Part shown: positions 42,006 to 59,062 of the stretch, piece after piece | Layout: each line of letters opens with the position of its first letter | Position numbering within the stretch: the first letter of the stretch is position 1 | Assembly: GCA_037131125.1 (NCBI GenBank) | Contig: JBAXRR010000001.1 | Location: 7,345 to 71,344 of the forward strand | DNA from: a bacterium | GTDB lineage: Bacteria > Patescibacteriota > Dojkabacteria > GCA-016699595 > JBAXKR01 | DNA: 64,000 nucleotides | Direction of reading: 5' to 3' | The notes under the pieces: generated by a model | What the model was told of the DNA's origin: nothing | The model's database searches: none | The model's input: only the letters and a program-made list of their open reading frames with translations | Program-made: the position numbers and the translations under genes

Positions 42006-45000
42006 TTAGAAATTGAATAGATTTCTAAGGCTATCCAGCAATAAGTTAGTTGCATCAGTTGAAGCTTTCGTAGTTATTGCAACAGTATTGCTAGATATTC
42101 CTGTGTTTTCAGCTTTATCTTTAGATACCGCTCTGAAATGATAGACCTTAGATGGTTCTAGATTTGAAATTACCACCATATGATTAGATGTTAGATTAAA
42201 GTCAGTAATAGATTTGGAAGGATATGTATCTGAATATCCCTCTCCAAATTCTACTGCAGAAGTTGCTGGTTCATCTGTATTCCAAGATACGATTATTTGT
42301 GCTTTTCCAGTACTGCTATTTGCTGTATTCTCTGCAACACTTTCTACAAGCATATCTGTAATTACAGGAGGTCTAGTATCTGATGCTGTAGTGAATTTAA
42401 CTATGTCAGATCTTGCTTCATTTCCAATTCTATCTTGTCCTTTTACAATTAGGTTATACAGTGTATCTGCTTTTAATCCGGATAATGTTATTTTATGTTC
42501 TCCAGATATTAATGCTAAGTTAACAGTATCTCTACTTTGGCTCGCTTTTCCATCTGGATAGTAAGTAACAATTGAACTTACTTCTGTATTAGACTGCCAA
42601 CTAATAATAATACTTGTCTCTGCAGTATTTTTTACTTGTTGTAACTTAACAGAGGAAACTCTTGGTCTTGGAAGTGTTTTGAAATCCAAAACAGTACCTT
42701 CATATTCTGTATTCTCAATGTCAAAAGGATTTACTCTGTAGTAATACTTAGTTCCGTCATCTAGACCGTCTAAGATTACCATGTACTTTGATTCATTATT
42801 ACTTGTTGGTAATTCTTGAAGTCCTCCAAATTGTGTAGATTTTCCATAATATATCTTTACCTTGTTTGCTCCAATTGAAGTGAATTGAATTCGAGCTGAG
42901 TTAGTTCCTACATTTACAACAGTTACATCTTTAACACTAGGAGCAGGTAATGTTTCAAAACTTTGTTCTGTAGATTCACCTAGGTTACCATCTTCATCAG
43001 TCCATCTTGCTTTGTAATAGTAAGTAGTTGAAGGAAGAAGATTTGTTAAATTAGTTACATGTTCAGTTACTTGTTTAGAATTTCCTGTATCGTCTGGGAA
43101 GTATTCACCTTGAGTAAGTCCATATACAATTCTGCTATCTGAATTTCTAGCTGTAACCCAAGAAATTGTTGCTCTTCTTGTCGTAATATTTGAAGTAACT
43201 GGACTAGATACTAATTCTGCAGGTACAGTATATGCTCCTTTTGGTGTAATACTTACAGATAATGAATAACTTGGACTTGCTTTGGATTCATCTGTGTTAT
43301 CCATACTTCCTACTCTGTAATAGTACTTCTTAGAAAGAGGTACTACGTCTACAAATGCAGTTCCATTCGTTTCAATTACTTTAGTCCAAGATGTTCCATT
43401 TTCAGATCTGTCTACTTCATAACTTAAAGCTCCAGTTCCTTTATATATAGGTTCATTCCATGCAAGAGATACACTCCAAAGACTTACACTCTTAATAGAT
43501 GTATCTGCAACTCTTAAATTTATTGCAGGATCTGGTAATGTAGAATTTAATGTAAATGTTTTAGATAGACCATTACTTCCTGAGTAGTTATTAAGATCGT
43601 CTATTGCCACTACATACACCCTATTTTGCCCTTTTACTGCACCAACAAGTTTACCTTCAGGTATTGAAGTACTTGTTGTAGGGATATATATTGTTGAATT
43701 ACTTAATATTGTACTTAAGAGATTTGGTGGAGTGGTGTTTATCATGTAGTAGTAAGATTTTAAGGATCTTCCAACAGATGGGACTGCTACTGGCCAAGAT
43801 AATGAGAAGCTATTAGTTGAGGATACAGATGGTGTAACAGTAATAGAAGATCCATCTGCAAACTTAGGAGCTTCTCCACCATATGAAATACTTGCTGTTC
43901 TACTTATTGTAGATAAATTACCCGCATTATCTAAAGCTCTGAAATATATTGTGTTATTTCCCATTTGAATCCTTGATGAGTCATTAGCAACACTTAAGTA
44001 GTAAGGTTGAGAATCACCAACAGGAATATATTTAACTCCAAGAGAAGCACTTGTATTACTTCCTGTCCAATTAGATTCACTATTAATAGAGTATTCGTAT
44101 CCAAGTAGTTGTGAGTTATTGTCAGAAGCTCCACTATTTCCACTTGTTGGCCAGTTGAAGTAGATATCGTCTACGTTTGAGAATGAATTTTGTGGTGTAG
44201 AGAAAGATGCAACATTTGTTGGTGGAAGATCATCATATTTGAATTCAAATGTTTCGGATGTTGGAAATGTGTTTCCTGCATTATCTAGTGCTTTAATGTT
44301 TAGATAGTATGGATTATTAGATGTTGTTAACCAAGTATTACCTCTTAGGGATAAATCACTAAAATCTATTTCATTAGTTCCTACAATAAACTGACAAGGC
44401 ATACCTATTGTACTTACTGGAGATGTACCCAATATTCCTTTAACAGATGTAGGATCGTCTGCTTGTGTCCCACTTAAAGATAAACAATATCCTTTTATTC
44501 CACTTCCTCCAACATTATCTACACCAAGGTCCCATCTAAAATATGGAGACTGATCATTTGTCCATCCAGTTTCTGAAACACTTCTTCCTTGTGCTGTGGT
44601 TTTCATACTTGTGTTAGCAGCATTAGTTGTTGGAGGAGTGTTATCTTCCACATAGTGAACTGACATCGTACTAATGCTTGGTGACGTAATTTGAGAAGCT
44701 GAATTTAATGTAGCTTTTATTTGAATATATTTTTGAGCTAATGCATTAATATTATAGTTAGGTGAAGTTCCAGAATTTGCAGTGTAGTTTGTCCATGTAT
44801 TTGCATCTGGACTTGTTCTAACATCATAACTTACTGTGTTTCCATTTAGAGATTCAGTTGTTACAAAGTTAGGAGATGTTCCCCACATTGCATTTGAATT
44901 AAGATTAATTACAGGAGATTCCCAGGTGCCTGTTGTTGTATATTTTCTTTGATCTGTTGTACTTTGTGAATAATTTGTAAGACTTTGATTATATAGGTCG

Positions 45001-48000
45001 GAAATCTGTGTTGATGTGAGTGCTTGATTAAATACTCTTAAGTCTGAAAGCATGCGAGTTGTATTACTTGAAATACCTCGAGAGAGAATAATACTTGAAA
45101 CAGTTGGAACAACTGAGTATGAGTTTGAAACTTTAAAAACTCCATCAAGATAAAATGATAATAGAGTTCCATTCCATGTTCCTACCCAGTTATGCCACTT
45201 ACCCTGTCCATATGTTGGCAAGCTTGTAAATGCTCCTGAACCACCAGTTCCTCTAATCTCAATTCCAGCTGAACCACAATCTTGCCCGAAATGAATATAG
45301 TTAGCACCGGAAGTATCTAATATTCCAGCATGAGCACCAGTACAACCAACATAGTAACTTGGGAACCAAATCCAAGCACTAATACTTCCAGAGCTTGCTG
45401 AAATATTTCCAGCTGACGGATAAACTATGTCACCTGCAGTTCTTATGCTTGTTGAGTTATTTTCTGTTCCACTCCATGTGTATCCAGGTCCTAAAGATCC
45501 ATCTACGTAACTTGTTGCGTATGCTTTTGCTTCAAGTTGAACACCATCAACATATATTATTTTATTTGATTTTATCTGAACTCCATAAAGAGCTGCCTGA
45601 TTAACTCCTGTTAAAGATCCAGTTAGCCTCCACCATCCTCCACCCATATCTGTATATGTTGTAGCAATTGTTGAAGTGTTGAAATATAGCTCTGCAATTG
45701 TATTACTTACAATTCCTCCAACATTTCCCGCTGTTCCATCGTAGACATAGCCACTTAATGTATTAGTTCCTGTATTTCCTACGTTAATATTAGTAGTTAC
45801 TTCATCTGTATATGAGCCACCATAATTTAATGCCATACTATTACTTCCAAATTTATAGTATGGCGCTACTGAATTTTGAGTCATAGATGCAGAATAGAAA
45901 CTAATGTATGTCCCATCTATTTGTCTTATTCCTCCCATGTAACTTCCCAAATATGCTGTCGTAAGTGCTGAGCTAAATGATGCTGGAATCGAAGTTGCAG
46001 TTATTCTATCTACTCCATTGACGGATACAATCATATTACCTCCACCTGAATATCGAACACCTATAACATATGTAGCACCTGCTGCAAAATCACCTACTGC
46101 ATTTGCATCATAAGTTGCCGTATTTGATACTCCATTCATTACATATTTCAAAGTTAATACATTTGCAACTGAGAAGTATAAATGTATTTCATTATTTGCA
46201 GTTCCATCTGAGATATATAGGATTCTAGGAGGTACACCATCTGCAAATTTAATTGCATTTGCAGCACTATGTCTTGGTGTAAATTTAAATTTAATACTTC
46301 CACTTGTAGTAGACATGCTGGAGACTGCTTGTGTTAAGGTATCTCCCCCATCTACTCTTAAACCAGTTGATTCTCCACTATTTGCTTGAGATGCTGGAGT
46401 AACTGTGAGTGAAATATTGTCCAACGTAAAATAGTACATATCGTCTGCATAACCATCTGTTGCGGTTAATCTGTGATCGTTAAATCCAGATGATGCATAT
46501 CTGTAAACACCTTTTAATAGACTCCAACTTCCTGTTCCACTAGTTGTTAAAGTTGTACTATTTGAGCCAGAGTTCAATATATATTTGCTACTCCAATATT
46601 TGTTAATTACTCCTGAGTTTGCATAAGCATACATTCCAAAGTCATAGAAATTTCCTGAAGTTGAAGCAGGTCTGGTGGGCATTATACAGTTACTTGAACT
46701 AGCACCAGATATTGCTAACTTAAGTGAATACTGTCCAGAATGAACAATGGAACTTGATAAAGATGTTGAGCCTGCAGGTAAAGTATTTATCCATCCATCC
46801 CATCCTGTTGGTAAAAGAGGATCTCCTGTTCCAGATTCCATGGATGGAGAAGACATGAGGTTAGGAAGTACTTCCACCTGATGCCAATAACATGTACCTG
46901 TTGCTACTGTATTAATTAATTGTACTTGTTCAGATTCAGCTGCAGGAGATGTCCATGTAAATATATATATATCTGGTGATGCTCTTGTACTAGTTTTTGT
47001 TCCTGTTAAGTGAGATATTTCAGTTGTTCCATCTGCTCTTGTTACTTTAACTTGAGGAGTACATGTTCCATCGCTATTTCCCAATGCCCTTAATACATAA
47101 TTTCCACCATTAGTTGCAGTAAATGTATTGTAAATTCCTTGCCCGATTCCTGTAGTTGTATATTTATATCCTCCTGGGTAGATCTTTTCAGATGTTGCTA
47201 ATGATGTAACATTGAATGATGAGGAAAGATTACCCATCGCTGCTGATACCGCAGCGATTTGTGGGGCAGACAATGTTGAGTTATATATTGCAATGGATTG
47301 TATCTTTATATTTGAATATTGTGCTGGACTTCCAGAGATATTTAATGCTGCAATGTAAAGTTCAGTATATCCTGAACCAGTTCCTGCAACAATGGTAGTA
47401 GGCTCAGCAATACCATTTCTGTAAGGAGTTTTTCCAGCAACTGCATATGTTCCTGCAGTAAGTACTGGAGTATTGACACCTGAAAATGAAGTTGTACCAT
47501 GGTAGCTATTCATTCCAGTATTATATGATTGCATTAATAATGAACCTGTTCCCCAAGTTCCAATAATTGTAGTTGATGCTGTTCCTGCGTATCCTGTGTA
47601 TGAAACAATAACTGTTGACGAATCAGTTGGAATAATTCCAGTTTTTAAATAATTAGATGTTCCATTAAATGTCCACCCATTAACGCTATCCCATGTCGGA
47701 GCCACTCCAACACTTGCATTATTTGTTCCAGGATTCGCTAGATTTATGTACGAATTAGCTAGGGAAGATGCGTTATATGGTTGATATGCTGCAACAACAT
47801 TTCCAGCTGATACTCCTCCAGCTAAATACCATGGTGTTTGTGATATAGCAGTAAATCCATCATTTGATGCAGTTCCATTCATCATATATCCACCAGTATT
47901 AGTTGTACTTGTATACAAAAGATTAGAACTATGAGGATGGCTCCATGCATTACCTGTACCACTAGCTAATGTTCCAGTAGAGGAATTAGTTGGAAGTGCA

Positions 48001-50243
48001 AATACAATATCCCATGATCCAGTTATTTGTGAAGGATCTTTGCCAGCACCTGCAGCATATATTTGACTTAACTCATCTCCATTTCCAATATTAATTCCAG
48101 ATGGAGTTGTTGCTTCATAAAGTACTCTTCGATAGATTGTTAAACCTTGAATGATTGCATCTGCTGGGAAAGTATTGTCATTCCTACTTCCTATTGTAAG
48201 TGTGGTTGGAGCGACTTCAGATCCATTCCCAATCATAAAGGTAGTAACATTATCAATTGTTAAACTTGCAGGATTTGATCCATTCAGGTTATTTTTGTTA
48301 TCCCATCTTGCAATAACTAGATGAGTGGATCCAGCTGTCCAAGCACTAACGTCAACATATTGAGAACCTCCTGCATTTTTACTATAGAAATATAGCCTGT
48401 TATCGCTGTATTTTCTGATTCCGGTTGTAGTATTACTCAATATGAAGTGATCAACATTATCATTTCCATTCCATTCTGGAGTTATCCAAAATACAATTGA
48501 CCCTTGTGTTGAATCAAAATTTTGATAGAAATTGCCAGATATTTGCGATCCCTGTGAAGCAGTCAGGGAATCTGGAATTCCTGTTCCATCCATGTTTCCC
48601 TGTACTATTGGAGCAGCAACAAATGGACCTGCTGGTGGAGTTCTTTTAGACATATTGGGGGTATAGGTTGAAGAACCTGCTGAATATGTCATGTAATTAG
48701 TTCCCCAGTTAGTTGCATATGATGCATTTTCAAAAGATGGATTAGTAATAAGGTTTGTTGTTCCCTCTTCTATCATGACTCCACTATGCGATGCATAAGA
48801 TTGATTATTTAATTTTCCTGAATCTGCTGAACTTGCATCTATACCAATAATTCCACCAACATATTTAGCACCAGATATTGTTCCGTTATTTCCATTCCCT
48901 GATGAGTCTATTGCTTTGCCTGTATTTCTAGGATCATCTCCATTTTCGTCAAAATGATAAAGTAATTTTGTATTTGAATCTGGTATTACAACTTTTCCAT
49001 TTCCTGAATTATATAGAGCTAATAATTCTTGAGAACTTAATATTCTGTTATACATTGAAAATTCATCTATCTGTCCATTAAAGAAATTAGCTGTTCCTCC
49101 AATTGTCATGTCATATGGGGAATCATCTTGAATAGTTCCACTTCCAGGATTATTTGATGTAAGTGTTTCTTCTACTCCATTTACAAAAAGATGAGTTACT
49201 CTGTCTGTAGAATCGTTATATGTATATGTAACCATATACCATGTGTTTGGATTCATTGCTGTTGTGCCAATAGAATTTCCCCCTCCATTAATATTTGCCC
49301 TTATCCTGTTAACTGAACCGTTATTATAGATGGTAAAGGAATCATTTCTTTTTACGTAAATTGTAAAACTTGCACCATTTGCGATTGGATTAAATTTAAC
49401 CCATGTATTAACTGTAATTAGATTATGAATATTATTAATTGAAGATTGTTTTCCCACGTTAATGTTGTCGTTAATTCCATCGAATGAAATCGCACTCTTA
49501 GTTGAATACCTTATTGCTCCACTTTCTGTAGATGGTGTTTGACCTGTCTCACATGTTGAAGATCCATTAAATGAACATACCATAGATGCTACTGGTCCAG
49601 ATTGAATTGAATATCCATTAGACCCTTGAGAAGATGCCCCACTATTTCCGTAATAAAGGAAATAGTTTGTTGAATCTGTTGAACTAGATGCTAAGTTTGC
49701 TTGAAGTGGAAATGTTAGTTGAGTAATTTTCGAATCATTACATCCAGTAGAACCATTTTCTTTCTTTATTGTAAGTGCTAGTTCAGTAGTATTTTGGTAA
49801 ACAATTCTAATGTCATTACAATTAGCAAGAACACTTTCAAGAGCTGTTGTATCTATTGAAATAGAAATTGGACTATTAGCGTTTATAGTTGAAGCTGAAG
49901 TATTCTTTATTGTTAATGGTCTTTTGTAATTCCAATTTAAGTTATACCAATTTGAATCTTTTCCAAGAGATATACTTGTTGTTGTGGCAATTACTCCATT
50001 TGCACTTCCTGCTGTGAAATCTGAAGATCCACCTTGTTGAATGTTAAAGTTTGTTTCATTTGCTGCAAGAATTTTCGGAAGTATTCCTATTCCCCCAACA
50101 GTTAATCCAAGTCCAATACAAACAATAGCAAATATATTTAATTGCCATTTAATAATTGTGATTTTTTTTGTGAAGAAATAGAAAGTAAAGGCGTCAAAAC
50201 ACTTCTTGAATACGATTCGTATTTTTTCAAGCAGAGTAAGCAT
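42006..50243 (-). CDS. giant surface protein (2745 aa): N-terminal signal-anchor, LamG and CBM4_9-like lectin domains, C-terminal FN3-like repeat cassette (paralog A)
   Basis: The N-terminal TM is IFAIVCIGLGLTVGGIGILP. The Laminin_G_3 signature is LLYHFDENGDDPRNTGKAIDSSGNGNNGTISGAKYV, with FNGQIDEFSMYNRILSSQELLALYNSGNG just upstream. CBM4_9-like modules start at NPSFENASYATNW. The C-terminal ~600 aa hold repeated ~90-aa FN3/PAP-N-like modules (ISWVTARNSDSRIVYGL...TTYYYKARWTDEDGN). No in-frame stops. Confidence 0.7.
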   Translation of the reverse strand: MLTLLEKIRIVFKKCFDAFTFYFFTKKITIIKWQLNIFAIVCIGLGLTVGGIGILPKILAANETNFNIQQGGSSDFTAGSANGVIATTTSISLGKDSNWYNLNWNYKRPLTIKNTSASTINANSPISISIDTTALESVLANCNDIRIVYQNTTELALTIKKENGSTGCNDSKITQLTFPLQANLASSSTDSTNYFLYYGNSGASSQGSNGYSIQSGPVASMVCSFNGSSTCETGQTPSTESGAIRYSTKSAISFDGINDNINVGKQSSINNIHNLITVNTWVKFNPIANGASFTIYVKRNDSFTIYNNGSVNRIRANINGGGNSIGTTAMNPNTWYMVTYTYNDSTDRVTHLFVNGVEETLTSNNPGSGTIQDDSPYDMTIGGTANFFNGQIDEFSMYNRILSSQELLALYNSGNGKVVIPDSNTKLLYHFDENGDDPRNTGKAIDSSGNGNNGTISGAKYVGGIIGIDASSADSGKLNNQSYASHSGVMIEEGTTNLITNPSFENASYATNWGTNYMTYSAGSSTYTPNMSKRTPPAGPFVAAPIVQGNMDGTGIPDSLTASQGSQISGNFYQNFDSTQGSIVFWITPEWNGNDNVDHFILSNTTTGIRKYSDNRLYFYSKNAGGSQYVDVSAWTAGSTHLVIARWDNKNNLNGSNPASLTIDNVTTFMIGNGSEVAPTTLTIGSRNDNTFPADAIIQGLTIYRRVLYEATTPSGINIGNGDELSQIYAAGAGKDPSQITGSWDIVFALPTNSSTGTLASGTGNAWSHPHSSNLLYTSTTNTGGYMMNGTASNDGFTAISQTPWYLAGGVSAGNVVAAYQPYNASSLANSYINLANPGTNNASVGVAPTWDSVNGWTFNGTSNYLKTGIIPTDSSTVIVSYTGYAGTASTTIIGTWGTGSLLMQSYNTGMNSYHGTTSFSGVNTPVLTAGTYAVAGKTPYRNGIAEPTTIVAGTGSGYTELYIAALNISGSPAQYSNIKIQSIAIYNSTLSAPQIAAVSAAMGNLSSSFNVTSLATSEKIYPGGYKYTTTGIGQGIYNTFTATNGGNYVLRALGNSDGTCTPQVKVTRADGTTEISHLTGTKTSTRASPDIYIFTWTSPAAESEQVQLINTVATGTCYWHQVEVLPNLMSSPSMESGTGDPLLPTGWDGWINTLPAGSTSLSSSIVHSGQYSLKLAISGASSSNCIMPTRPASTSGNFYDFGMYAYANSGVINKYWSSKYILNSGSNSTTLTTSGTGSWSLLKGVYRYASSGFNDHRLTATDGYADDMYYFTLDNISLTVTPASQANSGESTGLRVDGGDTLTQAVSSMSTTSGSIKFKFTPRHSAANAIKFADGVPPRILYISDGTANNEIHLYFSVANVLTLKYVMNGVSNTATYDANAVGDFAAGATYVIGVRYSGGGNMIVSVNGVDRITATSIPASFSSALTTAYLGSYMGGIRQIDGTYISFYSASMTQNSVAPYYKFGSNSMALNYGGSYTDEVTTNINVGNTGTNTLSGYVYDGTAGNVGGIVSNTIAELYFNTSTIATTYTDMGGGWWRLTGSLTGVNQAALYGVQIKSNKIIYVDGVQLEAKAYATSYVDGSLGPGYTWSGTENNSTSIRTAGDIVYPSAGNISASSGSISAWIWFPSYYVGCTGAHAGILDTSGANYIHFGQDCGSAGIEIRGTGGSGAFTSLPTYGQGKWHNWVGTWNGTLLSFYLDGVFKVSNSYSVVPTVSSIILSRGISSNTTRMLSDLRVFNQALTSTQISDLYNQSLTNYSQSTTDQRKYTTTGTWESPVINLNSNAMWGTSPNFVTTESLNGNTVSYDVRTSPDANTWTNYTANSGTSPNYNINALAQKYIQIKATLNSASQITSPSISTMSVHYVEDNTPPTTNAANTSMKTTAQGRSVSETGWTNDQSPYFRWDLGVDNVGGSGIKGYCLSLSGTQADDPTSVKGILGTSPVSTIGMPCQFIVGTNEIDFSDLSLRGNTWLTTSNNPYYLNIKALDNAGNTFPTSETFEFKYDDLPPTNVASFSTPQNSFSNVDDIYFNWPTSGNSGASDNNSQLLGYEYSINSESNWTGSNTSASLGVKYIPVGDSQPYYLSVANDSSRIQMGNNTIYFRALDNAGNLSTISRTASISYGGEAPKFADGSSITVTPSVSSTNSFSLSWPVAVPSVGRSLKSYYYMINTTPPNLLSTILSNSTIYIPTTSTSIPEGKLVGAVKGQNRVYVVAIDDLNNYSGSNGLSKTFTLNSTLPDPAINLRVADTSIKSVSLWSVSLAWNEPIYKGTGALSYEVDRSENGTSWTKVIETNGTAFVDVVPLSKKYYYRVGSMDNTDESKASPSYSLSVSITPKGAYTVPAELVSSPVTSNITTRRATISWVTARNSDSRIVYGLTQGEYFPDDTGNSKQVTEHVTNLTNLLPSTTYYYKARWTDEDGNLGESTEQSFETLPAPSVKDVTVVNVGTNSARIQFTSIGANKVKIYYGKSTQFGGLQELPTSNNESKYMVILDGLDDGTKYYYRVNPFDIENTEYEGTVLDFKTLPRPRVSSVKLQQVKNTAETSIIISWQSNTEVSSIVTYYPDGKASQSRDTVNLALISGEHKITLSGLKADTLYNLIVKGQDRIGNEARSDIVKFTTASDTRPPVITDMLVESVAENTANSSTGKAQIIVSWNTDEPATSAVEFGEGYSDTYPSKSITDFNLTSNHMVVISNLEPSKVYHFRAVSKDKAENTGISSNTVAITTKASTDATNLLLDSLRNLFNF

Positions 50244-50365: not shown

Positions 50366-53300
50366 TTAGAAATTAAATATTCCTCTAATATTTTTGAGAA
50401 TTAAATCCAGTGCATTATCTTGTGTGTTAGCAGTAATTGTTACAATATCCTGACTTTTACTTATGTTAGAAGCTTTATCTTTTGAAACAGCTACAAGGTG
50501 ATAAATCTTTGCAATTTCAAGGTTTGAAATTATTACCACATGGTTAACATTTAAGTTTCCATCTTCTGGAGTTTTGTATTTATATATATCTGTATTACCA
50601 TCTCCATATTCTATTTGAGAAGTAGCTGGTTCATCAGTTTTCCAGCTTACAATTACTTGAGCAGTTTTGTTTCCACCAGTTGCGCTTGTATCCGATGGAT
50701 ATGTCTCTACTAACAAATCTGTAATTACAGGAGGTCTTGTATCTGATGCTGTTGTAAACTTAACAATATCTGATCTTGCTTCGTTTCCTACTTTATCTAG
50801 TCCTCTTACAACTAAGCTATAGCTAACATCGGGCATTAAACCAGTAAGTGTCATTTGGTGAGAACCAACTAGAAGATTTAAGTTAACGCTATCTCTGCTC
50901 TGCTCTATTTTTCCTTCTGGATAGTATGTGATCATTGAAGTAATCTCAGTATTTGAAGTCCAAGATATTAGTATAGATGTTTCTGCTGTATTCTTTATCT
51001 GTTGTAATTTTATGTCACTTACTTTTGGTTTTTGAAGTGTTTTAAGATCCAAAACAGTTCCTTCATATTCAGTATCTTCAATGTCATAAGGATTAATTCT
51101 GTAGTAGTACTTCATTCCATCTTCTAGTCCATCTAATACAACAGTGTATTTAGATTCATTAACACTAGTTGGTAACTCTTGAAGCGAACCAAATTGTGTA
51201 GATTTACCATAATATATTTTAACTTTACTTGCACCTTTTGTAGTGAATTGTATTTGTGCAGAATTTGTATTTACAAACTTAACTACTACATCTTTTATCT
51301 CAGGAGCTGGACTTGTTGTAAATGTTTGCTCGTTAGATTTTCCTGTATTTCCATCTTCATCTGTCCATTTTGCAATGTAGTAATATGTTGTTGAAGGTTG
51401 AAGATTTGTTAGAGGAATAACATGAGAAGTTGTTTGTGTAGATATAGAGGTTTCTGCTTCAAAGTATTTCCCGGATTCTAATCCGTAGGAGATCTTACTA
51501 TCTGAATTTCTAGCTGTTACCCAAGTTACTATTGCTCTCTTCGTTGTTATATCAGAAGTAACAGGATTAGATATTAATTCAGCTGGGGTAGTATATGATC
51601 CCTTTGGAGTAATATTCACACTTAATGCATAACTTGGATTGGCTCTAGATAAGTCTGTATTATCCATACTTCCAACTCTGTAGTAGTACTTCTTTGAAGA
51701 TGGAACAATATCCACGTAAGCAAGTCCACTTGTTTCAGTAACTTTTACCCAATTAATACCATCTTCGGATCTATTTACAACGTATGTTAGTATTCCTGTT
51801 CCTTTATACTCTGGAACTTCCCATGCAAGAGATGCTCTCCATAAGGATGCAGATTTAACAGATGCATCCGATACTGTTAAGTTCTTAACAGGATCTGGAA
51901 TATTTGAATTCAAAGTGAAAGATTTTGAAAGTGAATTACTTCCTGAATAGTTATTAAGATCATCTATTGCAACTACATATATTGTGTTTGTTCCTTTAAT
52001 AACTCCACCTAGAGCAGATGCAGGAATGCTAAGGTTCTCTGTTGGAATATATATACTTGAATTGTTAAGTATTGTATCTAGAGTTGTAGGAGGTGCAGTG
52101 TTTATCATGTAGTAGTATTTAGAAACAGTTCTACCTGAAGAAGCAACTGCTTCTGGCCAACTTACACTAAAGTTATTAATCTCAGATGTCAGAGGGGTTA
52201 TAGTTATACTTGAACCATCTGTAAATTTAGGTGCTTCTCCACCATACGACACACTTGCTGTTCTAGATATACTTGATCTATTACCAGCAACATCTAAAGC
52301 TCTAAAATATATTGTGTTACTTCCCATTTGTATTCTTGATGCATCGTTTGCAATTGTTAAGTAATATGGTTGTGAATGTCCTAATGGAATGTAATTTAAT
52401 CCTAGGACAGAACTTGTATCACTTCCTGTCCAGTTAGATTCTGAGTTAATTGAATACTGGTATCCAAGCAGTTGAGAGTTACTATCTGAAGCGACACCAT
52501 TACCGCTTGCTGGCCAATTGAAATATATGTCGTCAACATTAGCAAAAGAATTTTGTGGTGTTGAAAATGAATTTACATTAGTAGGAGGGATGTCATCATA
52601 CATGAATTCAAAAGTTTCTGAAGTTGGATATGTATTTCCTGTGTTGTCTATTGCTTTGATGTTTAAGTAGTATGGACTATTTGATGCAGATAACCATGTA
52701 TTACCTTTAAGAGCACTATTTGCAAAATCTATCTCGTTAGTTCCAACTATGAACTGACATGTGTAACCAACCGTACTTATAGGTGATGTTCCAAGTAATC
52801 CTTTTTGAGAGGCTGGATCATCTGACAATGTTTGGCTTAAAGATAGACAGTATCCCTTTATTCCAGATCCACCTACATTATCTGCTCCTAAGTCCCATCT
52901 AAAATATGGAGAAGGATCATTCGTCCAGTTAGTTTCAGAAATATCTCTACCAGTAGTAGTACTTTTCATTGCAGTATTCGCAGCGTTAGTAATTGGTGCA
53001 GTTGTATCTTGAACATAATGTATAGATAATCCAGATACAACAGGTGTAGTTACCTGTCCTGGACTATTTAGTGTTGCTCTTATTTGAATATATTTTTGAG
53101 CTTGAGAAGCAATTGCATAGTTTGGATAATTTCCAGTATTAGCAGAATATGAATTCCATGTATTACCATCTGGAGATGTTCTTACTTCATAACTAGTTGT
53201 ATTTCCATTTAGCGTTTCTGTAGTAACAAAGTTAGGAGTTAATCCCCACTGTGCATTTGAATTAAGATTTATGACTGGTGATTCCCATGTACCACTAGTT

Positions 53301-56300
53301 GTATATTTTTGTTGATTAGTACTTGCTTCTGTGTGTAAAACCAAACCCTGATTGTATAAATCGCTTATCTGATTTACTGTTAATGGCTGATTATATATTC
53401 TGAAATCACTTATTACTGAGTTGCTTAGTGAGCCACCATCTCTTCCAACATACATTGAAGTTGGTGTTCCTATTGGGGCAACATAGTTAGCAGTTGCTCC
53501 ACTTTGAACATTGTTGACATATATTTTCAAAGCTCCGTTTGTCCAAGTTGCTACAATGTGTTGCCATTGATTAGTTGAAATTGTAGGTGTTGCCCCATTG
53601 TATCCAGTACTTGCAACTACTCCTCCACTATATGCAAATGAGTAAATTCTTCTTGCAGGACTGCCATTGTCATAAAGAATATTGAAATAGTTTTGCCCAT
53701 CTATGACATATGAGAATATTCTTGAATAGTCATTTTGCCAACTTACGGGTTTAACCCATAAGGAAACACTGCCTGAAGTTTTATCTATATTTCCTACTGT
53801 TGAGTACTGTATATTACTTTCGTTCTTTGTTGTATTTGAATTGTTTGCAGTTCCTGTCCAGTTGTACCCTCCCGAAATAGGGAGTGAGCCATCTGCATAT
53901 GAGGTTGCGAAAGCTTTTCTTTCTAATTGAATACCATCTATATATACCAATTTTGTAGGTTTAACTTGTACTCCAAATGTTTGAGATGTTGTAACTCCAG
54001 TGAATGTTCCTGTAAGTCTCCACCATCCACCTCCCATGTCCGTATATGTTGATGTTAGTGGTTGTGAATTTGCAATAAGTGATAAATCTGTATTTGAAAT
54101 ACTTGCACCAGTTGTATATGCATATGCAGATAATGTATATGAAGTAGCAGTTAGAGTTAGAGGTGTAGTATATGTACTATCTAGTATACTTCCAGAGTTA
54201 TCTAGTTTTGCTGAAGCAGTTCCAAATTTAAAATATGGGCTTGTTGTATTTCTTGTTTTAGTTATTTGATCTGCTCCAAGAACTGTTACTCCATTTGCAC
54301 TAGATCCTGCAACAAGTGTAGGAAGTGTTCCTTGTCCTACTCCCCAAATAGCGATGGTATCATTGTTTAAAAGAGCTGGTGTTGTTGCCGAGGTATACGA
54401 AGCTATCATTGAATCTGAATCTGTATAGTCTCCTACTTTTCCATTTCTAATTACGCTAACTCCACCATTTGCTCCACTTGTTGCTATGTATATATATTTA
54501 TTATCACTACTTGTCCATACACCTTTTGTAATTGCACTTGTACCTGCAAGTTGTTGTGTAAATGAACTTTGTCTTGCAGCATTTCCTTTTGCATACATAT
54601 CTGCAACTTGAGTAGCAGTAACTGCGGTAACACCAATGAAAGGCTCATCTATTGTTCCTTGAAAATTACTTGTACCTGAAGTATTTGCTCCTATTATGAA
54701 TGGTTTGTTGTTGTCATTAGGGGCAGTTAAACTACCTGTTTTGTTTAAAGCACCATCTATGTATATATTTCCAGTAGTTCCGTTAGATGTGAACACATAT
54801 TGATGCCAATTTGTATCAGCAATTGTTGCAACACTAGTTAAAGAATTAATTCCACCATATATCCAGTTTATTGTATTGTCTGCATTAAAGTATGCACTAT
54901 ATCCTGTATTTGCTCCTCCAGATGTTCCTTTTGAAAACAGATTTTCAACAACTCCAGATCTTCCTCTTTTAGCCCAAAGTCCAACACTTAACTCTCCTGA
55001 ATATATTTGAAAATCTGTCTTTCTTACTTCAAAAGTATATGTTGTATCATTGTAGTTAAAACCAGATTCTATACTGGTCCAGTTTCTAACTGCTCCATTT
55101 CTTGTAGAAACAATATGTACTCCATCAATTTGAGTATCTGTTACTTCTTTTACGGATACTTCATCAAAATATGCAGTATCATTAAGATTAGAAGTTCCGG
55201 GTCCTAACCTAATATATGTAGTAGTTGCGTTTGCTACAAAATATCTTGTAAGAAGTGTCCAACTAGTACCACCGCTATATCCATAAGATATATTTTCATT
55301 TCCACCTTGAGAAGTTCCTGAATATATTGAATTGTTCCCGGTTCCGTTTTTTACATACATTGAAATTCTATACATCTTTCCAACTACTGTTGTAATGCTT
55401 TGATAAACATATCCATACGTACCACCTGATCCAATAGTTGTCTGTAATGCATTATTACTAAATCCTCCCGCAACACTTGCTCCTGTTCCTCCTGCAGCTG
55501 CTGTCCATCCTGTTGCATTAGTATCAAAAGTTCCATTTGTAATTAATTCACTCCCAACTGTTTCTCCAGATGAGTTATTTCCCATATATCCCCATGCAGC
55601 TTTTCCAGCACTATCTTTCATGGTGATAATAAATGGTGTGGCACTAGTATCATTTCCTTTGTATGAGGAAAGAATTGGAGAAGATAAAGGTTTAACAGAG
55701 ATATCATCAAATCTACAAGTTTTATTTAAGGATGAATTTGCTAAGGCAATAAAATGTGATCCGGTTAAGGTTGAAGTAAAGTAACCTGAAATATATGTCC
55801 AGCTTGTTGAACTAATTACAGGACTTGTATACATTGAGGAGTAATCCGTTTTTGTTACAGTTAGTGAGCAGATGGTCGAATCTATAGCTTTAATCCACCC
55901 AGTTACTTTATACACAGTTCCATAAGTGAGTGTTATGGCTTGACTTACTATCCAGCTATTTGTTCCTCCATATACTGCATCTATAGCTTTTGTTCCTGTA
56001 CCTCCTGGAGCCTGATCTGCTGCTGAAGTTACAGTACTTCCAGAACTTGCACTCCAAGTACTTGGTGGTGTTCCAGTTTCCATATTTCCATTTATAACTG
56101 TTTCACTTCCAAGTGTTTCCCCTGCTCTAATAAATGCCTGTCCATTTGCATAAGAAGCATTATTTGTTGCTGATCCCCAAGTTGCGCCAGTTTCTGTTAA
56201 ATATGTTTTTTCTTTTAAATAATCCCCTGTTCCATCAAACTTTAATCCACTTCCTCTAACAGCTCTTTCGTAATCAGCACTTTGAATTTCTGCACTTGCT

Positions 56301-59062
56301 CCACCTGATCCCCCCCATGGTCTTGTTGCATTCCCGACCGTTAATTCACTTTGAGTTGTTGTTCCATTGTAATTTGTGGAGGCACCACTTTGAATAACTG
56401 GGTTTATTCCTACCTCTCCATATAGTGGCCACATGCCTCTAATCTCCCCATACATTTCTTCAGTTATGAAATCTTTTCTATAAAACTTTACTGAACTTCT
56501 TGATTCATCCCCCTGTTTTTCTTGTATTACGGCTAAATTACCAGCATTCCCAGCTAAAGTTCTTTCTGATGCGACATATATTGTATTACTTGTCCCATCA
56601 ATTAAAGAAGTTCCTTCGTTTACAAAGAATTTATAGTTACCACTTTGTGAATCATATGGCTTTCCAAGTGATACAGATGTAGATGTTCCATATCCATAGT
56701 ATGGTCCCAGAGCAAAGTTATTAGTTTTGGATTGAATTGAATAAGTTCCATAAATTCCACCATTTGTTGGAGAATTATTAGGTGAAGGTAAGGCTAAGTA
56801 AAGTTCTCCTCTACTTGTTAACCAAACATAGTTAAATCTCATAACAGAAGCTGAATTTATTGCGGTTCCGTCAGTCTCATTAATTATTGTTGCACCTGCA
56901 TCAGTTCCGACTGCAACATATGTTTTCCCAGATATTACATTTGTATGAACTGCATAAACATAATTATTCATTATCTTAATATTTGTTCCTAAGTAGGAAG
57001 AAGAAAGTCCAGCGGCTCTTTGTGCAATTGTTCCTGAATATACCTGAGGAGAAGTACCATCATTCCAGTAATGAAGACCTGCTTCAGTTTTGAAGTTAAC
57101 GGAGAAAAGTCCACTATATGATGAAGATCCATTATCTCTTCCAATATATATTTCTCCATTTAATGCATATACCGAAGATATAATTGAAGCTGAATTTCCT
57201 CCAAGAAAACTTCCACCATTTGTTGAAAATCTCATCCACAACTTATTCTCAACTGCATCTATGACATCTAGATAACTAATACTTCCATTGTAACTAGCTA
57301 CTATGTATGACTTTTCAGGAAACTCTTGCTTTTTACCTCTAGTTGTTGAAAATGCTTCTGTATACCATGATTTAGATTGCGCGTTTGCATTATTTCTCCA
57401 TGCTCCACTATCCGAATCTTTTGTGGTGTCATAATAGAAAACATCTTTTATGTTATTTGCACCGATAAGTGTATTTCCATCTGCATCTGTTTGAGAAGAT
57501 GTGTAATTAAATGTATTTTTTCCATTCCAAGAAGTTGTAATGTCACTTTCAAAAGATGGATTAGGAATATAGTTAGTTGTACCTTCTTCAACAAGAATTC
57601 CTTGATGTGATGCATATGATTGTGATGGAACCTTTCCAATTTCCGTTGATGCAAAATCTATTCCAATAGTTCCACTTACATACTTAGCATTAGATATTGT
57701 TCCATTTAAACCATTTCCCGAGGCATCTAGTGCTTTCCCTGTGTTTCTTGGGTCATCCCCATTCTCATCAAAGTGATAAATAAGTTTTGTATTTGAATCT
57801 GCAATTATTATCTTTCCATTTCCAGAGTTGTATTGACCTAGTATTTCAGAATCTGAAAGTGCTCTATCATACATGACTACTTCATCCATTTGTCCTTTAA
57901 AAGGAACTGCACCGTCTGGCCTTCTTCCTAACATAAACTTAGAACCACTTGTTGGCAAGATATATGCAGTAGATATTGGAGTAGATGGGACAAGTACTCC
58001 ATTAATGTACATGTTTGCAGTTGTTCCACTAAATGTTCCAACTAGATGTATCCATTGATTCGTTTGTGAAAACGCATTATTCGCATATATTCTATATGCA
58101 GTTCCACCTCTAACAACTTGTACCATAAGTCTTCCACCACCAAGTAATATGTGAGCATTATTCTGGTTATCTACGAAATTACTTACAATTGTTTGATTAC
58201 TTATTGCATCTTGGAAATTAATCCACATTCCAACTGTAAAATCTCCTGACATATTAAGATTTGAACTTGATCCAGCATCTACGTAACTTGTTGATCCATT
58301 AAACGATAAAGCGCTCTTTGTTGAATATCTTAATGCTCCTGTTGCTACTGATGGGGTTTGAGCTGTTTCACAAGTTGTTGTTCCATTGAACGAACATACC
58401 ATAGTCGCTTGAGGTCCTCCCGGTATTGAATATCCATTTGTACCTTGAGCAGTTGCTCCTGAATTCCCATAATATAAAGCGTAGTTTGTTGTATCTGAAG
58501 ATCCTGAGGTTATATTTGCTTGAATTGGGAATGTAAGAATAGTTGCTTTTGAATCATTACAACCTGTAGATCCTAAATCTCTTTTAATGGTTATTGGTAA
58601 GTCTGTGTTGGATTGGTATATAACCCTTATGTCATTACAATTTGCAAGGACACTTTCAAGAGAAGAAGTATCTATGGTAATAGATACTGAACTTGTTGTA
58701 TTAAGTGTTGAACCAGAAGTATTTTTTATTGTTAGTTGTTTTTTGTAATTCCAATTCATACTAAACCAATTTGTGGATTTCCCAAGTGTAAGATTAGAAG
58801 CATTAGCAACTGTGTTTACAGATGTTCCAAGAGTGAAATTAGAATCTCCACCTTGAGCTATTGTGAAGTTTGTTTCATTTAGAGCCATAAGCTTAGGAAG
58901 TATTCCAGCTCCTCCAATTAATATACCAAGGCCTAATACAGAAACAGTAAAGACGTTAAGTTGCCACTTAATTAATGTGATTTTCTTAGTAAAGAAGAAT
59001 ATATATATCGAGTTTAAAACTCTTCTTGCTTTAATTCTAATTTTTGTAACTACATCATGCAT
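50366..59062 (-). CDS. giant surface protein (2898 aa), paralog B of the same family
   Basis: The first ~250 aa are about 70% identical to paralog A (FFTKKITLIKWQLNVF, NWNYKKQLTIKNTS, SVLANCNDIRVIYQ). The same LamG signature is present (LIYHFDENGDDPRNTGKALDASGNGLNGTISNAKYV). The central ~1000 aa are divergent. The C-terminal ~1200 aa are highly similar (YTDMGGGWWRLTG, FN3 cassette, ...LDLILKNIRGIFNF end). Confidence 0.7.
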   Translation of the reverse strand: MHDVVTKIRIKARRVLNSIYIFFFTKKITLIKWQLNVFTVSVLGLGILIGGAGILPKLMALNETNFTIAQGGDSNFTLGTSVNTVANASNLTLGKSTNWFSMNWNYKKQLTIKNTSGSTLNTTSSVSITIDTSSLESVLANCNDIRVIYQSNTDLPITIKRDLGSTGCNDSKATILTFPIQANITSGSSDTTNYALYYGNSGATAQGTNGYSIPGGPQATMVCSFNGTTTCETAQTPSVATGALRYSTKSALSFNGSTSYVDAGSSSNLNMSGDFTVGMWINFQDAISNQTIVSNFVDNQNNAHILLGGGRLMVQVVRGGTAYRIYANNAFSQTNQWIHLVGTFSGTTANMYINGVLVPSTPISTAYILPTSGSKFMLGRRPDGAVPFKGQMDEVVMYDRALSDSEILGQYNSGNGKIIIADSNTKLIYHFDENGDDPRNTGKALDASGNGLNGTISNAKYVSGTIGIDFASTEIGKVPSQSYASHQGILVEEGTTNYIPNPSFESDITTSWNGKNTFNYTSSQTDADGNTLIGANNIKDVFYYDTTKDSDSGAWRNNANAQSKSWYTEAFSTTRGKKQEFPEKSYIVASYNGSISYLDVIDAVENKLWMRFSTNGGSFLGGNSASIISSVYALNGEIYIGRDNGSSSYSGLFSVNFKTEAGLHYWNDGTSPQVYSGTIAQRAAGLSSSYLGTNIKIMNNYVYAVHTNVISGKTYVAVGTDAGATIINETDGTAINSASVMRFNYVWLTSRGELYLALPSPNNSPTNGGIYGTYSIQSKTNNFALGPYYGYGTSTSVSLGKPYDSQSGNYKFFVNEGTSLIDGTSNTIYVASERTLAGNAGNLAVIQEKQGDESRSSVKFYRKDFITEEMYGEIRGMWPLYGEVGINPVIQSGASTNYNGTTTQSELTVGNATRPWGGSGGASAEIQSADYERAVRGSGLKFDGTGDYLKEKTYLTETGATWGSATNNASYANGQAFIRAGETLGSETVINGNMETGTPPSTWSASSGSTVTSAADQAPGGTGTKAIDAVYGGTNSWIVSQAITLTYGTVYKVTGWIKAIDSTICSLTVTKTDYSSMYTSPVISSTSWTYISGYFTSTLTGSHFIALANSSLNKTCRFDDISVKPLSSPILSSYKGNDTSATPFIITMKDSAGKAAWGYMGNNSSGETVGSELITNGTFDTNATGWTAAAGGTGASVAGGFSNNALQTTIGSGGTYGYVYQSITTVVGKMYRISMYVKNGTGNNSIYSGTSQGGNENISYGYSGGTSWTLLTRYFVANATTTYIRLGPGTSNLNDTAYFDEVSVKEVTDTQIDGVHIVSTRNGAVRNWTSIESGFNYNDTTYTFEVRKTDFQIYSGELSVGLWAKRGRSGVVENLFSKGTSGGANTGYSAYFNADNTINWIYGGINSLTSVATIADTNWHQYVFTSNGTTGNIYIDGALNKTGSLTAPNDNNKPFIIGANTSGTSNFQGTIDEPFIGVTAVTATQVADMYAKGNAARQSSFTQQLAGTSAITKGVWTSSDNKYIYIATSGANGGVSVIRNGKVGDYTDSDSMIASYTSATTPALLNNDTIAIWGVGQGTLPTLVAGSSANGVTVLGADQITKTRNTTSPYFKFGTASAKLDNSGSILDSTYTTPLTLTATSYTLSAYAYTTGASISNTDLSLIANSQPLTSTYTDMGGGWWRLTGTFTGVTTSQTFGVQVKPTKLVYIDGIQLERKAFATSYADGSLPISGGYNWTGTANNSNTTKNESNIQYSTVGNIDKTSGSVSLWVKPVSWQNDYSRIFSYVIDGQNYFNILYDNGSPARRIYSFAYSGGVVASTGYNGATPTISTNQWQHIVATWTNGALKIYVNNVQSGATANYVAPIGTPTSMYVGRDGGSLSNSVISDFRIYNQPLTVNQISDLYNQGLVLHTEASTNQQKYTTSGTWESPVINLNSNAQWGLTPNFVTTETLNGNTTSYEVRTSPDGNTWNSYSANTGNYPNYAIASQAQKYIQIRATLNSPGQVTTPVVSGLSIHYVQDTTAPITNAANTAMKSTTTGRDISETNWTNDPSPYFRWDLGADNVGGSGIKGYCLSLSQTLSDDPASQKGLLGTSPISTVGYTCQFIVGTNEIDFANSALKGNTWLSASNSPYYLNIKAIDNTGNTYPTSETFEFMYDDIPPTNVNSFSTPQNSFANVDDIYFNWPASGNGVASDSNSQLLGYQYSINSESNWTGSDTSSVLGLNYIPLGHSQPYYLTIANDASRIQMGSNTIYFRALDVAGNRSSISRTASVSYGGEAPKFTDGSSITITPLTSEINNFSVSWPEAVASSGRTVSKYYYMINTAPPTTLDTILNNSSIYIPTENLSIPASALGGVIKGTNTIYVVAIDDLNNYSGSNSLSKSFTLNSNIPDPVKNLTVSDASVKSASLWRASLAWEVPEYKGTGILTYVVNRSEDGINWVKVTETSGLAYVDIVPSSKKYYYRVGSMDNTDLSRANPSYALSVNITPKGSYTTPAELISNPVTSDITTKRAIVTWVTARNSDSKISYGLESGKYFEAETSISTQTTSHVIPLTNLQPSTTYYYIAKWTDEDGNTGKSNEQTFTTSPAPEIKDVVVKFVNTNSAQIQFTTKGASKVKIYYGKSTQFGSLQELPTSVNESKYTVVLDGLEDGMKYYYRINPYDIEDTEYEGTVLDLKTLQKPKVSDIKLQQIKNTAETSILISWTSNTEITSMITYYPEGKIEQSRDSVNLNLLVGSHQMTLTGLMPDVSYSLVVRGLDKVGNEARSDIVKFTTASDTRPPVITDLLVETYPSDTSATGGNKTAQVIVSWKTDEPATSQIEYGDGNTDIYKYKTPEDGNLNVNHVVIISNLEIAKIYHLVAVSKDKASNISKSQDIVTITANTQDNALDLILKNIRGIFNF

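Follow-up and report, generated by a model that had tools for sequence, protein, structure and literature searches.

A common C-terminal cassette and a linked MacB-type ABC transporter in predicted giant surface proteins of Patescibacteria

We analysed a stretch of 64,000 nucleotides (hereafter the window) from a genome of the Dojkabacteria, a lineage of Patescibacteria (contig JBAXRR010000001.1, positions 7,345 to 71,344), in which three giant genes on the minus strand, A, B and C, encode predicted surface proteins that end in a fibronectin type III (FN3) domain followed by a short tail. The main new result is a gene linkage: in the relatives of these giants, the giant gene adjoins the genes of an ATP-binding cassette (ABC) ATPase and a MacB-type permease. 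A ~900-residue C-terminal cassette, as judged by sequence, defines a Patescibacteria-wide family of giant surface proteins, and the C-terminal base of these proteins may be docked to, or handled by, the linked transporter. The window features on which this rests are as follows.

42006..50243, minus strand: giant gene A, 2745 amino acids (aa), with collinear orthologues in the L081 giant and in the related loci L071, L073 and L067
50366..59062, minus strand: giant gene B, 2898 aa, a paralogue of A with a replaced centre, directly upstream of A on the same strand
59167..61119, minus strand: 650-aa permease of the MacB type (type VII ABC), containing MacB_PCD and FtsX domains
61239..62951, minus strand: ABC-F-like protein with two nucleotide-binding domains (NBDs), 570 aa, occupying the slot of the relatives' ~225-260-aa ABC ATPase
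63448..64000, minus strand: 3' end of giant gene C, its frame open to the window end and its stop codon at 63448-63450

Linkage of the giant genes to a MacB-type ABC transporter

Sixty-five of the 69 related loci with at least 3 kb of sequence downstream of the giant show the same order, namely the giant, then an ABC ATPase of ~250 aa, then a permease with MacB_PCD and FtsX domains, the ATPase and permease being sometimes fused. In the remaining four, the pair lies directly upstream of the giant (L071, L073), is convergent with it (L058), or follows the permease-ATPase order (L074); the ABC pair adjoins the giant in all 69 loci with room for it. The reciprocal look-up gives the same picture, as the independently identified permease homologues P0016, P0024, P0040 and P0041 each adjoin a tail-bearing giant (4/4). 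All three Parcubacteria-type giants (P0090, P0122, P0059) are likewise followed by an ABC ATPase and then by a MacB_PCD/FtsX permease of ~400 aa, and the permeases of the related loci are homologous to the window permease over its full length, with 33-38% identity. Because this adjacency has survived both rearrangement and phylum-deep divergence, we argue for a functional tie between giant and transporter. Giant and ATPase are also often translationally coupled, the ATPase open reading frame (ORF) of the giant-ATPase-permease loci starting at the stop codon of the giant or a few bases to either side of it.

The Parcubacteria-type ATPases are longer (426-496 aa), and the one inspected, that of L087, carries one NBD and, C-terminal to it, an extension of ~200 residues that is helical and contains internal repeats. 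They are encoded at the following positions of their loci.

L087, 15444-16934: Parcubacteria-type ATPase
L088, 23551-24831: Parcubacteria-type ATPase
L089, 9398-10849: Parcubacteria-type ATPase

In two related contigs (L085, 7056-11584; L086, 6214-10742) the gene triplet is followed directly by a cluster resembling a type IV secretion system, with a TrbC/type IV secretion pilin, a TraC-like protein, a VirB4-like AAA_10/DUF87 protein and an M23 peptidase.

The window permease matches the Pfam families MacB_PCD (4.2e-16) and FtsX (3.2e-20). Its AlphaFold2 model, with a predicted local distance difference test (pLDDT) score of 76, places a transmembrane (TM) helix at residues 94-129, an outside domain of ~370 residues at 130-498, and further helices at 499-640. 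Compared with structures in the PDB, this model is closest to Spr0694-0695, MacB, LolCDE and YtrEF (Foldseek: 5xu1, 2e-18; 5gko, 5e-18; LolCDE, 4e-17), and the list of fold matches includes complexes of LolCDE with Lpp, FtsEX with EnvC, and MacAB-TolC with YbjP. The modelled product of this ORF is thus a permease of the MacB superfamily. We also considered FtsEX proper and rejected it, as its scores with the FtsX models of NCBIfam (24-30 bits) fall far below their cut-offs (225-255), LolCE scores 88 bits, and FtsEX structures rank only 45-46 among the fold matches. Two extra long N-terminal helices (residues 1-69) precede the canonical TM1, and the outside domain contains an insertion of ~160-200 aa (within 212-375) with pLDDT values below 50 at 212-236, 286-300 and 355-375. 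The permeases of Saccharibacteria and Parcubacteria (~400 aa) are without that insertion.

The C-terminal cassette and its tail helix

In the window, the tail and the domain that carries it occupy the following positions, all on the minus strand.

42009..42053, minus strand: tail helix of A, ATNLLLDSLRNLFNF, aa 2731-2745, which has diverged furthest among the window tails
50369..50413, minus strand: tail helix of B, ALDLILKNIRGIFNF, aa 2884-2898, helical in AlphaFold2
63451..63495, minus strand: tail helix of C, ALDLIVKNLRNIFGF, the copy that most resembles the family consensus
42009..42380, minus strand: C-terminal module of A (last FN3 and tail), aa 2622-2745
50369..50743, minus strand: C-terminal module of B (last FN3 and tail), aa 2774-2898
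63451..63828, minus strand: C-terminal module of C (last FN3 and tail)

As the initial annotation had noticed, the module (IVSWxTDEPA..HVVIISNL.. and then the tail) is present in all three giants. Over the 183 aa visible of C, which take in the tail, the last FN3 and a portion of the FN3 before it, identity is 63% between B and C, 57% between A and B, and 54% between A and C. The tail itself is conserved as a pattern, not strictly: over the last 16 aa, B and C share 12 residues, whereas A shares 7 with B and 7 with C.

Outside the window, a word-indexed search with the B module yielded 13 metagenomic homologues, and the tail is present in all 12 that reach the C terminus, the thirteenth ending before it. 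A pattern search in which each GTDB species was represented by one genome then gave 271 confirmed matches, with 80 loci kept for the counts reported here. In every one of these 80 the tail is C-terminal, with IVSWxTDEP 95-106 residues before the stop codon, in host ORFs of up to ~2900 residues, some of them cut by contig ends; the tail is therefore a feature of homologues in related genomes. Its consensus over 15 residues is A-L-[DN]-L-V-I-x-N-L-x-x-h-F-G-[FW]. When the 80 loci are compared together with A, B and C (83 copies), the core reads A-L-[DN]-L-V-I-x-N-L-x-x-[AIV]-F-G-F, and Leu9 is retained in 80, Phe13 in 82, Gly14 in 66 and Asn8 in 55, and Asn8, Gly14 and Ala1 are conserved across phylum-level distances. 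Each of Leu9, Phe13, Gly14 and Asn8 is encoded by every synonymous codon available, and purifying selection therefore acts on the protein.

The tail is the exact end of the protein in 11 of the 83 copies, among them A, B and C, while the other 72 add 1-10 residues, another respect in which the extreme C terminus is less strict than first described. In 22 of these 72 loci the codons after FGF contain GGAGG, a Shine-Dalgarno-like sequence, a few bases before the next gene, and we therefore take the extension to be, at least in part, the ribosome-binding site of the downstream ATPase. The residues 'LGG..' that follow the tail in L002, L003, L007, L010, L013, L021, L022 and others are encoded by TTAGGAGG.., a Shine-Dalgarno sequence that lies at ~10380-10400 of each locus, from a few to ~20 nt ahead of the start codon of the ATPase. 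Directly downstream of A, B and C there is no ATPase gene, and all three end exactly at F-x-F. Conservation of the tail as a ribosome-binding site was likewise considered and rejected for the 15-residue core, given the use of all synonymous codons and the presence of the tail in A and B without a downstream ATPase.

A profile search of 1.84 billion representative sequences retrieved mostly generic multi-FN3 proteins. Among the best 150 representatives, the tail expression falls within the last 30 residues of 45 proteins (~57 by a looser reading by eye), compared with only nine internal matches in the 338,723 residues of the same 150. These terminal matches include a sister form of the tail with the same position specificity, S-[VI]-[LI]-Q-[IL]-I-I-x-N-F-E-x-T-F-G-W followed by ~6 basic residues, which occurs in proteins of up to 6321 aa whose named members come from Uhrbacteria and Parcubacteria.

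The tail does not stand alone. In 61 of the 63 complete giants matching B, a collinear C-terminal block is shared at 30-52% identity, starting at about B 1600-2040 and running to the end (the last ~860-1300 residues), whereas the parts before it span ~0-2000 aa and are often different in kind. The sequences thus describe the tail as the terminus of a conserved stalk of ~900 residues of Ig/FN3-like domains, preceded by a variable N-terminal part; it is this cassette that would define the family.

Two side observations concern the search results. Multi-FN3 proteins of the Pur_ac_phosph_N type from other organisms (P0051, P0052, P0061, P0076, P0079 and others) end in sequences such as ..SGVYFYR....KMLLLK, which by eye resemble C-terminal domains of the type IX secretion system (T9SS), stand in the position equivalent to the tail and look quite unlike it. 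They offer a parallel for a sorting function at the C terminus; if this resemblance holds, the same kind of stalk is joined to different terminal sorting elements in different phyla. Ten loci of typical architecture (L002, L003, L005, L008, L009, L014, L015, L016, L026, L053) come from metagenome-assembled genomes (MAGs) labelled Pseudomonadales, Gammaproteobacteria, Omnitrophota, Limisphaerales or Aerophobetes; in both giants and ABC genes, however, these loci are closely related to Roizmanbacteria and Shapirobacteria records, and the labels or the binning are probably wrong.

Structurally, the last domain of the window giants matches Pfam Pur_ac_phosph_N above the curated cut-off (E = 4e-12 for A, 1e-13 for B, 3.9e-12 for C). 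The Pfam FN3 match spans residues 2645-2724 of the 2745 in A, leaving the final ~20 outside the domain. We modelled the last 125 residues of B with AlphaFold2, using an alignment of 15 sequences (the three window copies and the 12 metagenomic homologues). The model (mean pLDDT 84.6) consists of a beta-sandwich at residues 7-104 (pLDDT ~89-96) and, after a linker of ~6 residues, an alpha-helix at residues 111-123 (ALDLILKNIRGIF; pLDDT 62-65). As modelled, then, the tail is a separate amphipathic alpha-helix and not the last FN3 beta-strand, the alternative that the initial annotation had named against its own suggestion of a sorting or anchoring element. A fold search of this model against the PDB returns only generic FN3/Ig matches; the top matches are TRAP subunits, whose likeness amounts merely to a beta-sandwich followed by a helix.

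The hydrophobic face of the helix is formed by positions 2, 5, 6, 9, 12 and 13 (hydrophobic moment 0.32-0.61), the opposite face carries Asn, Asp, Gln or Lys, the mean net charge of the core is neutral to acidic (-0.6 to -1.3), and the extension after the tail, where present, is often short and basic (mean charge +0.7 to +1.6). On direct reading, the tail is far too short, and too polar, for a membrane span. Some penicillin-binding proteins (PBP5/6) are held at the membrane by a C-terminal amphipathic helix, and the tail could similarly lie in the outer leaflet of the cytoplasmic membrane as an in-plane anchor, with the transporter acting elsewhere or extracting and inserting the helix. The clear hydrophobic face (moment 0.3-0.6), the frequent basic extension (+0.7 to +1.6), a length and polarity that do not suit a membrane span, and the fact that anchors embedded in the membrane are extracted by LolCDE, to which the permease is structurally related, are all in keeping with such an arrangement. 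Nevertheless, we consider it unlikely, as the charge of the core (-0.6 to -1.3) poorly suits anionic bacterial membranes, the conservation of Asn8, Gly14 and Ala1 exceeds the needs of amphipathicity, and a basic extension is missing from 11 of the 83 copies, A, B and C among them. The conservation of these three residues, together with the core charge, is what leads us to favour specific docking over lipid binding.

The helix might instead be purely structural, capping the last FN3 or bundling with other tails to oligomerise the protein, in which case the link with the ABC genes would have to do with a different region of the giant. It always accompanies the same specialised last FN3 (SWxTDEPATSQVEYG...), the whole cassette of ~900 aa is conserved and not the tail alone, and any sort of contact between proteins could account for conservation at the level of particular residues. 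For a cap packed tightly within the same molecule, however, a pLDDT of only 62-65 next to an FN3 core at 89-96 would not be expected, 15 residues are short for a stable coiled coil, and both the strict C-terminal position and the ABC adjacency would be left unexplained, making this a less probable account than the membrane anchor.

N-terminal leaders and the mosaic of A and B

Both complete giants of the window start with an extended leader.

50064..50243, minus strand: extended leader of A, with a basic N-region, KKITIIKWQLN, a hydrophobic segment and P-K-I-L-A|A-N-E
58883..59062, minus strand: extended leader of B, with KKITLIKWQLN, a hydrophobic segment and P-K-L-M-A|L-N-E

The sequence FFTKKITxIKWQLN precedes the TM segment in A and B; in relatives the motif takes the form [RK][FW][QH][FL][NS], found in 17 of the 66 complete giants. 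In A, B and many relatives, the motif is followed by a hydrophobic stretch of ~25-30 residues, which is unusually long, and then by P-x-h-F-A|L-N-D, which resembles a signal peptidase I site. Cleavage at this conserved h-F-A|L-N-D is probable, and several family members carry ordinary cleavable-looking signal peptides. The initial annotation had likened the leader to the extended KxYKxGKxW-type signal peptides; an extended leader is indeed conserved in many relatives, but neither A nor B has an NCBIfam match to KxYKxGKxW or YSIRK, and it belongs to no such family. The Saccharibacteria-type giants of L054, L058, L062, L065, L075, L076 and L077 have a Trp/His-rich leader just before the TM segment (e.g., RYKWYEKWHAWNF..HQHVHW and LQRWQWYVSWHNWRWHRHVH), which in this lineage seems to correspond to the RFQFN / KWQLN leader of the others.

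The leaders bear on another alternative, in which the tail is an uncleaved C-terminal secretion signal by which the neighbouring ABC transporter exports the giant, as in the type I RTX adhesins. A helix-forming, uncleaved-looking C-terminal element beside ABC transporter genes, with giant and ATPase genes translationally coupled, would be in line with this. Yet the giants carry N-terminal Sec-type leaders or signal peptides, the transporter is of the MacB type (four TM helices and a large outside domain) and not an HlyB-type exporter, and no RTX repeats, membrane fusion protein or outer-membrane partner appear in any locus gene table; moreover, as structural work has established, MacB-type permeases have no transmembrane substrate channel. 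Export through this transporter is accordingly improbable.

The two complete giants are themselves a mosaic, composed of the following parts.

48669..50243, minus strand: N-terminal cassette of A, aa 1-525 (leader, TM segment, first domain, LamG, linker)
57488..59062, minus strand: N-terminal cassette of B, aa 1-525, a BLASTP block with A
45888..48668, minus strand: centre of A, aa 526-1452, without a Pfam match and conserved in the orthologues of A
54263..57487, minus strand: centre of B, aa 526-1600, with one LamG domain and otherwise no Pfam match
42009..44753, minus strand: family-wide C-terminal cassette of A, aa 1831-2745
50369..53116, minus strand: family-wide C-terminal cassette of B (~900 aa), aa 1983-2898

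By BLASTP, A and B are 51% identical over residues 1-525 of each and 62% identical between A 1453-2745 and B 1601-2898, while between A 526-1452 and B 526-1600 similarity is undetectable. The picture of conserved ends around a strongly divergent centre thus stands, with corrections at the N terminus, where the identity of ~70% initially given for the first 250 aa is too high: windows of 100 aa give 49%, 68% and 51% across residues 1-300. The N-terminal cassette is also longer (525 aa) than first described and is interrupted by a divergent LamG domain, which is swapped between A and B (26% over residues 300-392), before identity returns to 69% over residues 393-492. The centre lies at ~25%, and the last ~1000 aa at 65-80%, with only 35% over the extreme 20 residues. 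A DUF2341 domain at the N terminus, suggested by the motif NWNYK(R/K)xLTIKN, was considered and not borne out by Pfam, which gives no match for residues 1-253 of A or B at E <= 1.

The centre had initially been called a hypervariable core. The centre of A is collinear with its orthologues: the L081 orthologue, which is the giant downstream of the L081 permease, is 54% identical to A over residues 22-788 and 55% identical over 943-2745, and A and L071 share 44% and 40% over the corresponding blocks, centre included. Since the identity between orthologues equals that of the flanks, the centre of A evolves no faster than they do. The centre of B has no counterpart in any fetched locus. We therefore reject hypervariability or diversification by a diversity-generating retroelement, as the centre of A is kept in orthologues and that of B is unrelated to it. 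The A/B mosaic stems from a gene duplication after which B had its head cassette exchanged, not from hypermutation; paralogues that differ in the middle are thus domain-swapped.

A promoter-like element upstream of both genes (TTGTAATCACC, a 17-nt spacing, TATATT, then TATATATTAT) seems to have been included in the duplication, and each giant probably has its own promoter.

50291-50319, minus strand: shared promoter-like element, copy upstream of A
59110-59138, minus strand: shared promoter-like element, copy upstream of B

The initial annotation had further suggested recombination or gene conversion between the paralogues, and ongoing conversion between tandem copies could in principle keep the ends alike, reducing the tail conservation in the window to a by-product of homogenisation. 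Consistent with some exchange, A is nearer in the C-terminal cassette to its neighbour B (64.6%) than to its L081 orthologue (58.5%), and the quartet-informative sites there favour groupings other than orthology (AB|gO 32, orthology Ag|BO 15, Bg|AO 28), whereas in the N-terminal cassette orthology is favoured (AB|gO 13, orthology Ag|BO 16, Bg|AO 7). The counts of the two cassettes differ with a chi-square of ~7.9 at 2 degrees of freedom, which we read as a weak hint of an old exchange in the C-terminal cassette. Recent gene conversion is excluded by a third-position synonymous identity of 0.5-0.65 in the conserved cassettes, compared with ~0.45-0.5 in the unrelated centre, and by a longest exact nucleotide match between A and B of 23 nt. 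In addition, the tail is conserved, through all synonymous codons, in at least 80 unrelated genomes with a single copy per locus, and A and B differ most precisely in the tail region (50%), the last FN3 and tail of A being the most diverged (B and the L081 giant share 72%, A and either of them 50-51%). As an explanation of the conserved tail, ongoing conversion is very improbable, the least probable of the accounts considered here.

The remaining genes of the window lie around this locus. Read along the minus strand, the order is C, a 113-aa ORF, the ABC-F-like gene, the permease, B, A and a 355-aa ORF, which by reading alone we take to be MurB-like.

63042..63383, minus strand: small ORF (113 aa) that contains Cys and separates the ABC-F-like gene from C; no family matches it, and related loci lack a counterpart
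34901-35299 and 35332-35640, minus strand: adjacent small membrane proteins sharing a motif (YNNAKKNNVENPALWLV.. and YSDAKKHNIENPVLWGV..), apparently a tandem pair of paralogues from a family of small TM proteins
9523-10038, plus strand: 171-aa type IV pilin-like protein with a prokaryotic N-terminal methylation motif (Pfam N_methyl, 3.3e-07)

The rest of the window is housekeeping, with Pfam matches to ATP synthase a and b, AsnB, Clp ATPase and topoisomerase I as well as PheST, IF3 and ThrRS, and two ORFs that, reading by eye, we presume to be a class A penicillin-binding protein and MutL. The G+C content of the window is ~32%, and the N termini of the giants have their best matches in Dojkabacteria-type MAGs. 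Type IV pili are, as far as we know, the only experimentally supported attachment device in the phylum.

Proposed mechanism and relation to known systems

In the mechanism we propose, the giant would be exported via Sec by its N-terminal leader. The leader would then be removed, probably so because several members have ordinary cleavable-looking signal peptides that leave no N-terminal anchor, and the C-terminal end would be the only shared element left to hold the protein on the cell. The conserved C-terminal end would thus form the cell-proximal base, with the last FN3 and the helix docking non-covalently on the extracytoplasmic domain of the MacB-type permease or, alternatively, being handed over by the transporter for mounting. 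The stalk would project the lineage-specific N-terminal part (LamG and other domains, not the same in A and B) outward as a distal working head. MacB-superfamily permeases grip partners outside the membrane and transmit ATP-driven movements to them, and here too ATP hydrolysis could act, by way of the permease, on the docked base. A sorting or anchoring role for the tail, already suspected in the initial annotation, is plausible and becomes more specific through the neighbouring MacB-type transporter, which that annotation did not mention. That the C-terminal base is docked to, or handled by, this transporter is our preferred reading, to which we give somewhat less than even credence; the putative docking itself is supported by gene adjacency.

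Several observations weigh against docking. By tblastn, no small single-NBD ATPase is present anywhere in the 64-kb window, whereas the relatives (L081 and at least 65 loci) have a separate ABC ATPase of ~225-260 aa; in L081, whose permease is the second-closest homologue found (64%), a 223-aa ATPase lies between the upstream giant and the permease. The ABC-F-like protein has two Walker A and two signature motifs and aligns over its full length with ribo_prot_ABC_F (305 bits against a cut-off of 380), and identity between its second NBD and the cognate ATPases amounts to only 29%. Either the ABC-F-like protein has perhaps replaced the cognate ATPase, or the latter may now be encoded outside the window. 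Gene A is 8.9 kb from the permease, and the tail helix is predicted with only moderate confidence (pLDDT 62-65). Adjacency could reflect another part of the 900-aa cassette, or a shared process such as envelope remodelling instead of docking, and a leader left uncleaved as a signal anchor would put both ends of the protein at the membrane. Finally, in Southlakia epibionticum, the one cultivated Saccharibacterium with transposon-sequencing data, a MacB-type pair (SEML1_0053/0054; orthology not established) that scored a growth defect in transposon sequencing adjoins a tRNA gene and not a giant. SEML1_0890 of the same organism, called an FN3 protein in the text of that study, has only 195 aa and was discarded as a homologue candidate.

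Much of bacterial diversity belongs to the Patescibacteria, which apparently live attached to other microbes. Beyond type IV pili, little of this attachment has been described, and the giant lectin/FN3 proteins are routinely noted as 'putative adhesins' whose mode of anchoring is not known. As a class, large lectin/FN3 proteins of the Candidate Phyla Radiation are familiar, but for the ABC linkage, the shared stalk cassette and the helix at its end we found no description in the searchable literature, Pfam or NCBIfam, which is not proof of novelty. The common C-terminal cassette, the terminal motif ..NLxxxFG[FW] and the almost invariant MacB-type ABC partner give the family a handle, and motif and gene triplet can be used for its annotation. 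We see a real chance that these genes represent a distinct phylum-wide surface-fibre system. In its fullest form, which we regard as speculative and well short of probable, this would be a Patescibacteria-wide, sortase-independent system made of a giant with FN3 stalk and docking helix, an ABC ATPase and a MacB-type permease, in which the transporter mounts the fibre and drives it mechanically by ATP, interchangeable heads, such as the differing centres of A and B, set the binding, and the whole serves as the main host-attachment organelle. If docking is true, mechanotransmitting ABC machines would extend to the mounting or actuating of surface fibres, a new job for type VII ABC transporters.

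Among known C-terminal elements, the LPXTG/sortase, T9SS and PEP-CTERM signals are likewise position-specific and borne by large, modular, repeat-rich proteins with variable heads, and as a further point of likeness a short basic stretch often follows the element here. The element itself differs, being a polar-faced amphipathic helix of 15 residues, and so does the linked machinery, an ABC transporter in place of a sortase, exosortase or the T9SS. In line with the initial reading that none of the three is present, NCBIfam gives no match for LPXTG, none for T9SS C-terminal domains at E <= 0.01 and none for PEP-CTERM; the last 40 aa of A, B and C contain neither LPXTG nor a hydrophobic stretch of ~20 residues, the last domain is an ordinary FN3 followed by the helix, and direct reading reveals no PEP-CTERM motif. 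Similar in form are the anchors of Escherichia coli PBP5 and PBP6, which are also short C-terminal amphipathic helices of exported proteins with aromatics and Gly near the end and a comparable hydrophobic moment. Unlike these, the core here is neutral to acidic, with conserved polar residues, and belongs to a giant fibre tied to an ABC transporter.

At the N terminus, the YSIRK-G/S and KxYKxGKxW signal peptides of large surface proteins similarly place a motif in an elongated N-region just before the hydrophobic core; here the motif is KKITxIKWQLN or RFQFN, the hydrophobic stretch is long, and no accessory Sec system is seen in the window. The giant RTX adhesins (LapA, MpIBP) share with our proteins a giant Ig-like stalk, a functional head and an adjacent ABC transporter gene, their C-terminal signal being uncleaved. 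They differ in that our giants have a Sec leader, a transporter of the MacB and not the HlyB type, no RTX repeats and no outer membrane, and no HlyD-family protein occurs in any locus gene table. Within the Patescibacteria, large multi-copy lectin/FN3 proteins with FN3, LamG, DUF2341 and FhaB domains have been reported, with adhesion inferred and domain reshuffling suggested (Patescibacterium danicum, PMC11809585; Castelle et al. 2017, PMC5220378). These reports make no mention of a C-terminal helix, a common 900-aa cassette or an ABC linkage, and Pfam detects neither DUF2341 nor FhaB domains in A or B.

A close parallel is also offered by the machines of the MacB superfamily themselves, i.e., FtsEX with EnvC, PcsB or RipC, LolCDE with its lipoproteins and LolA, and MacAB-TolC. 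The window permease shares their build, with four core TM helices, the MacB_PCD and FtsX domains and a sizeable domain outside the membrane. Their ATPase is a separate subunit, as it is in the relatives here (~225-260 aa), and known members act on proteins at the membrane's outer face, either holding or moving them. We know of no member paired with an FN3-array protein of 1000-6000 aa. The outside domain of the window permease also departs from the known machines in its poorly predicted insertion of ~160-200 aa, and whereas the partners of FtsEX bind by an N-terminal coiled coil, the putative point of attachment here is a C-terminal helix of 15 residues.

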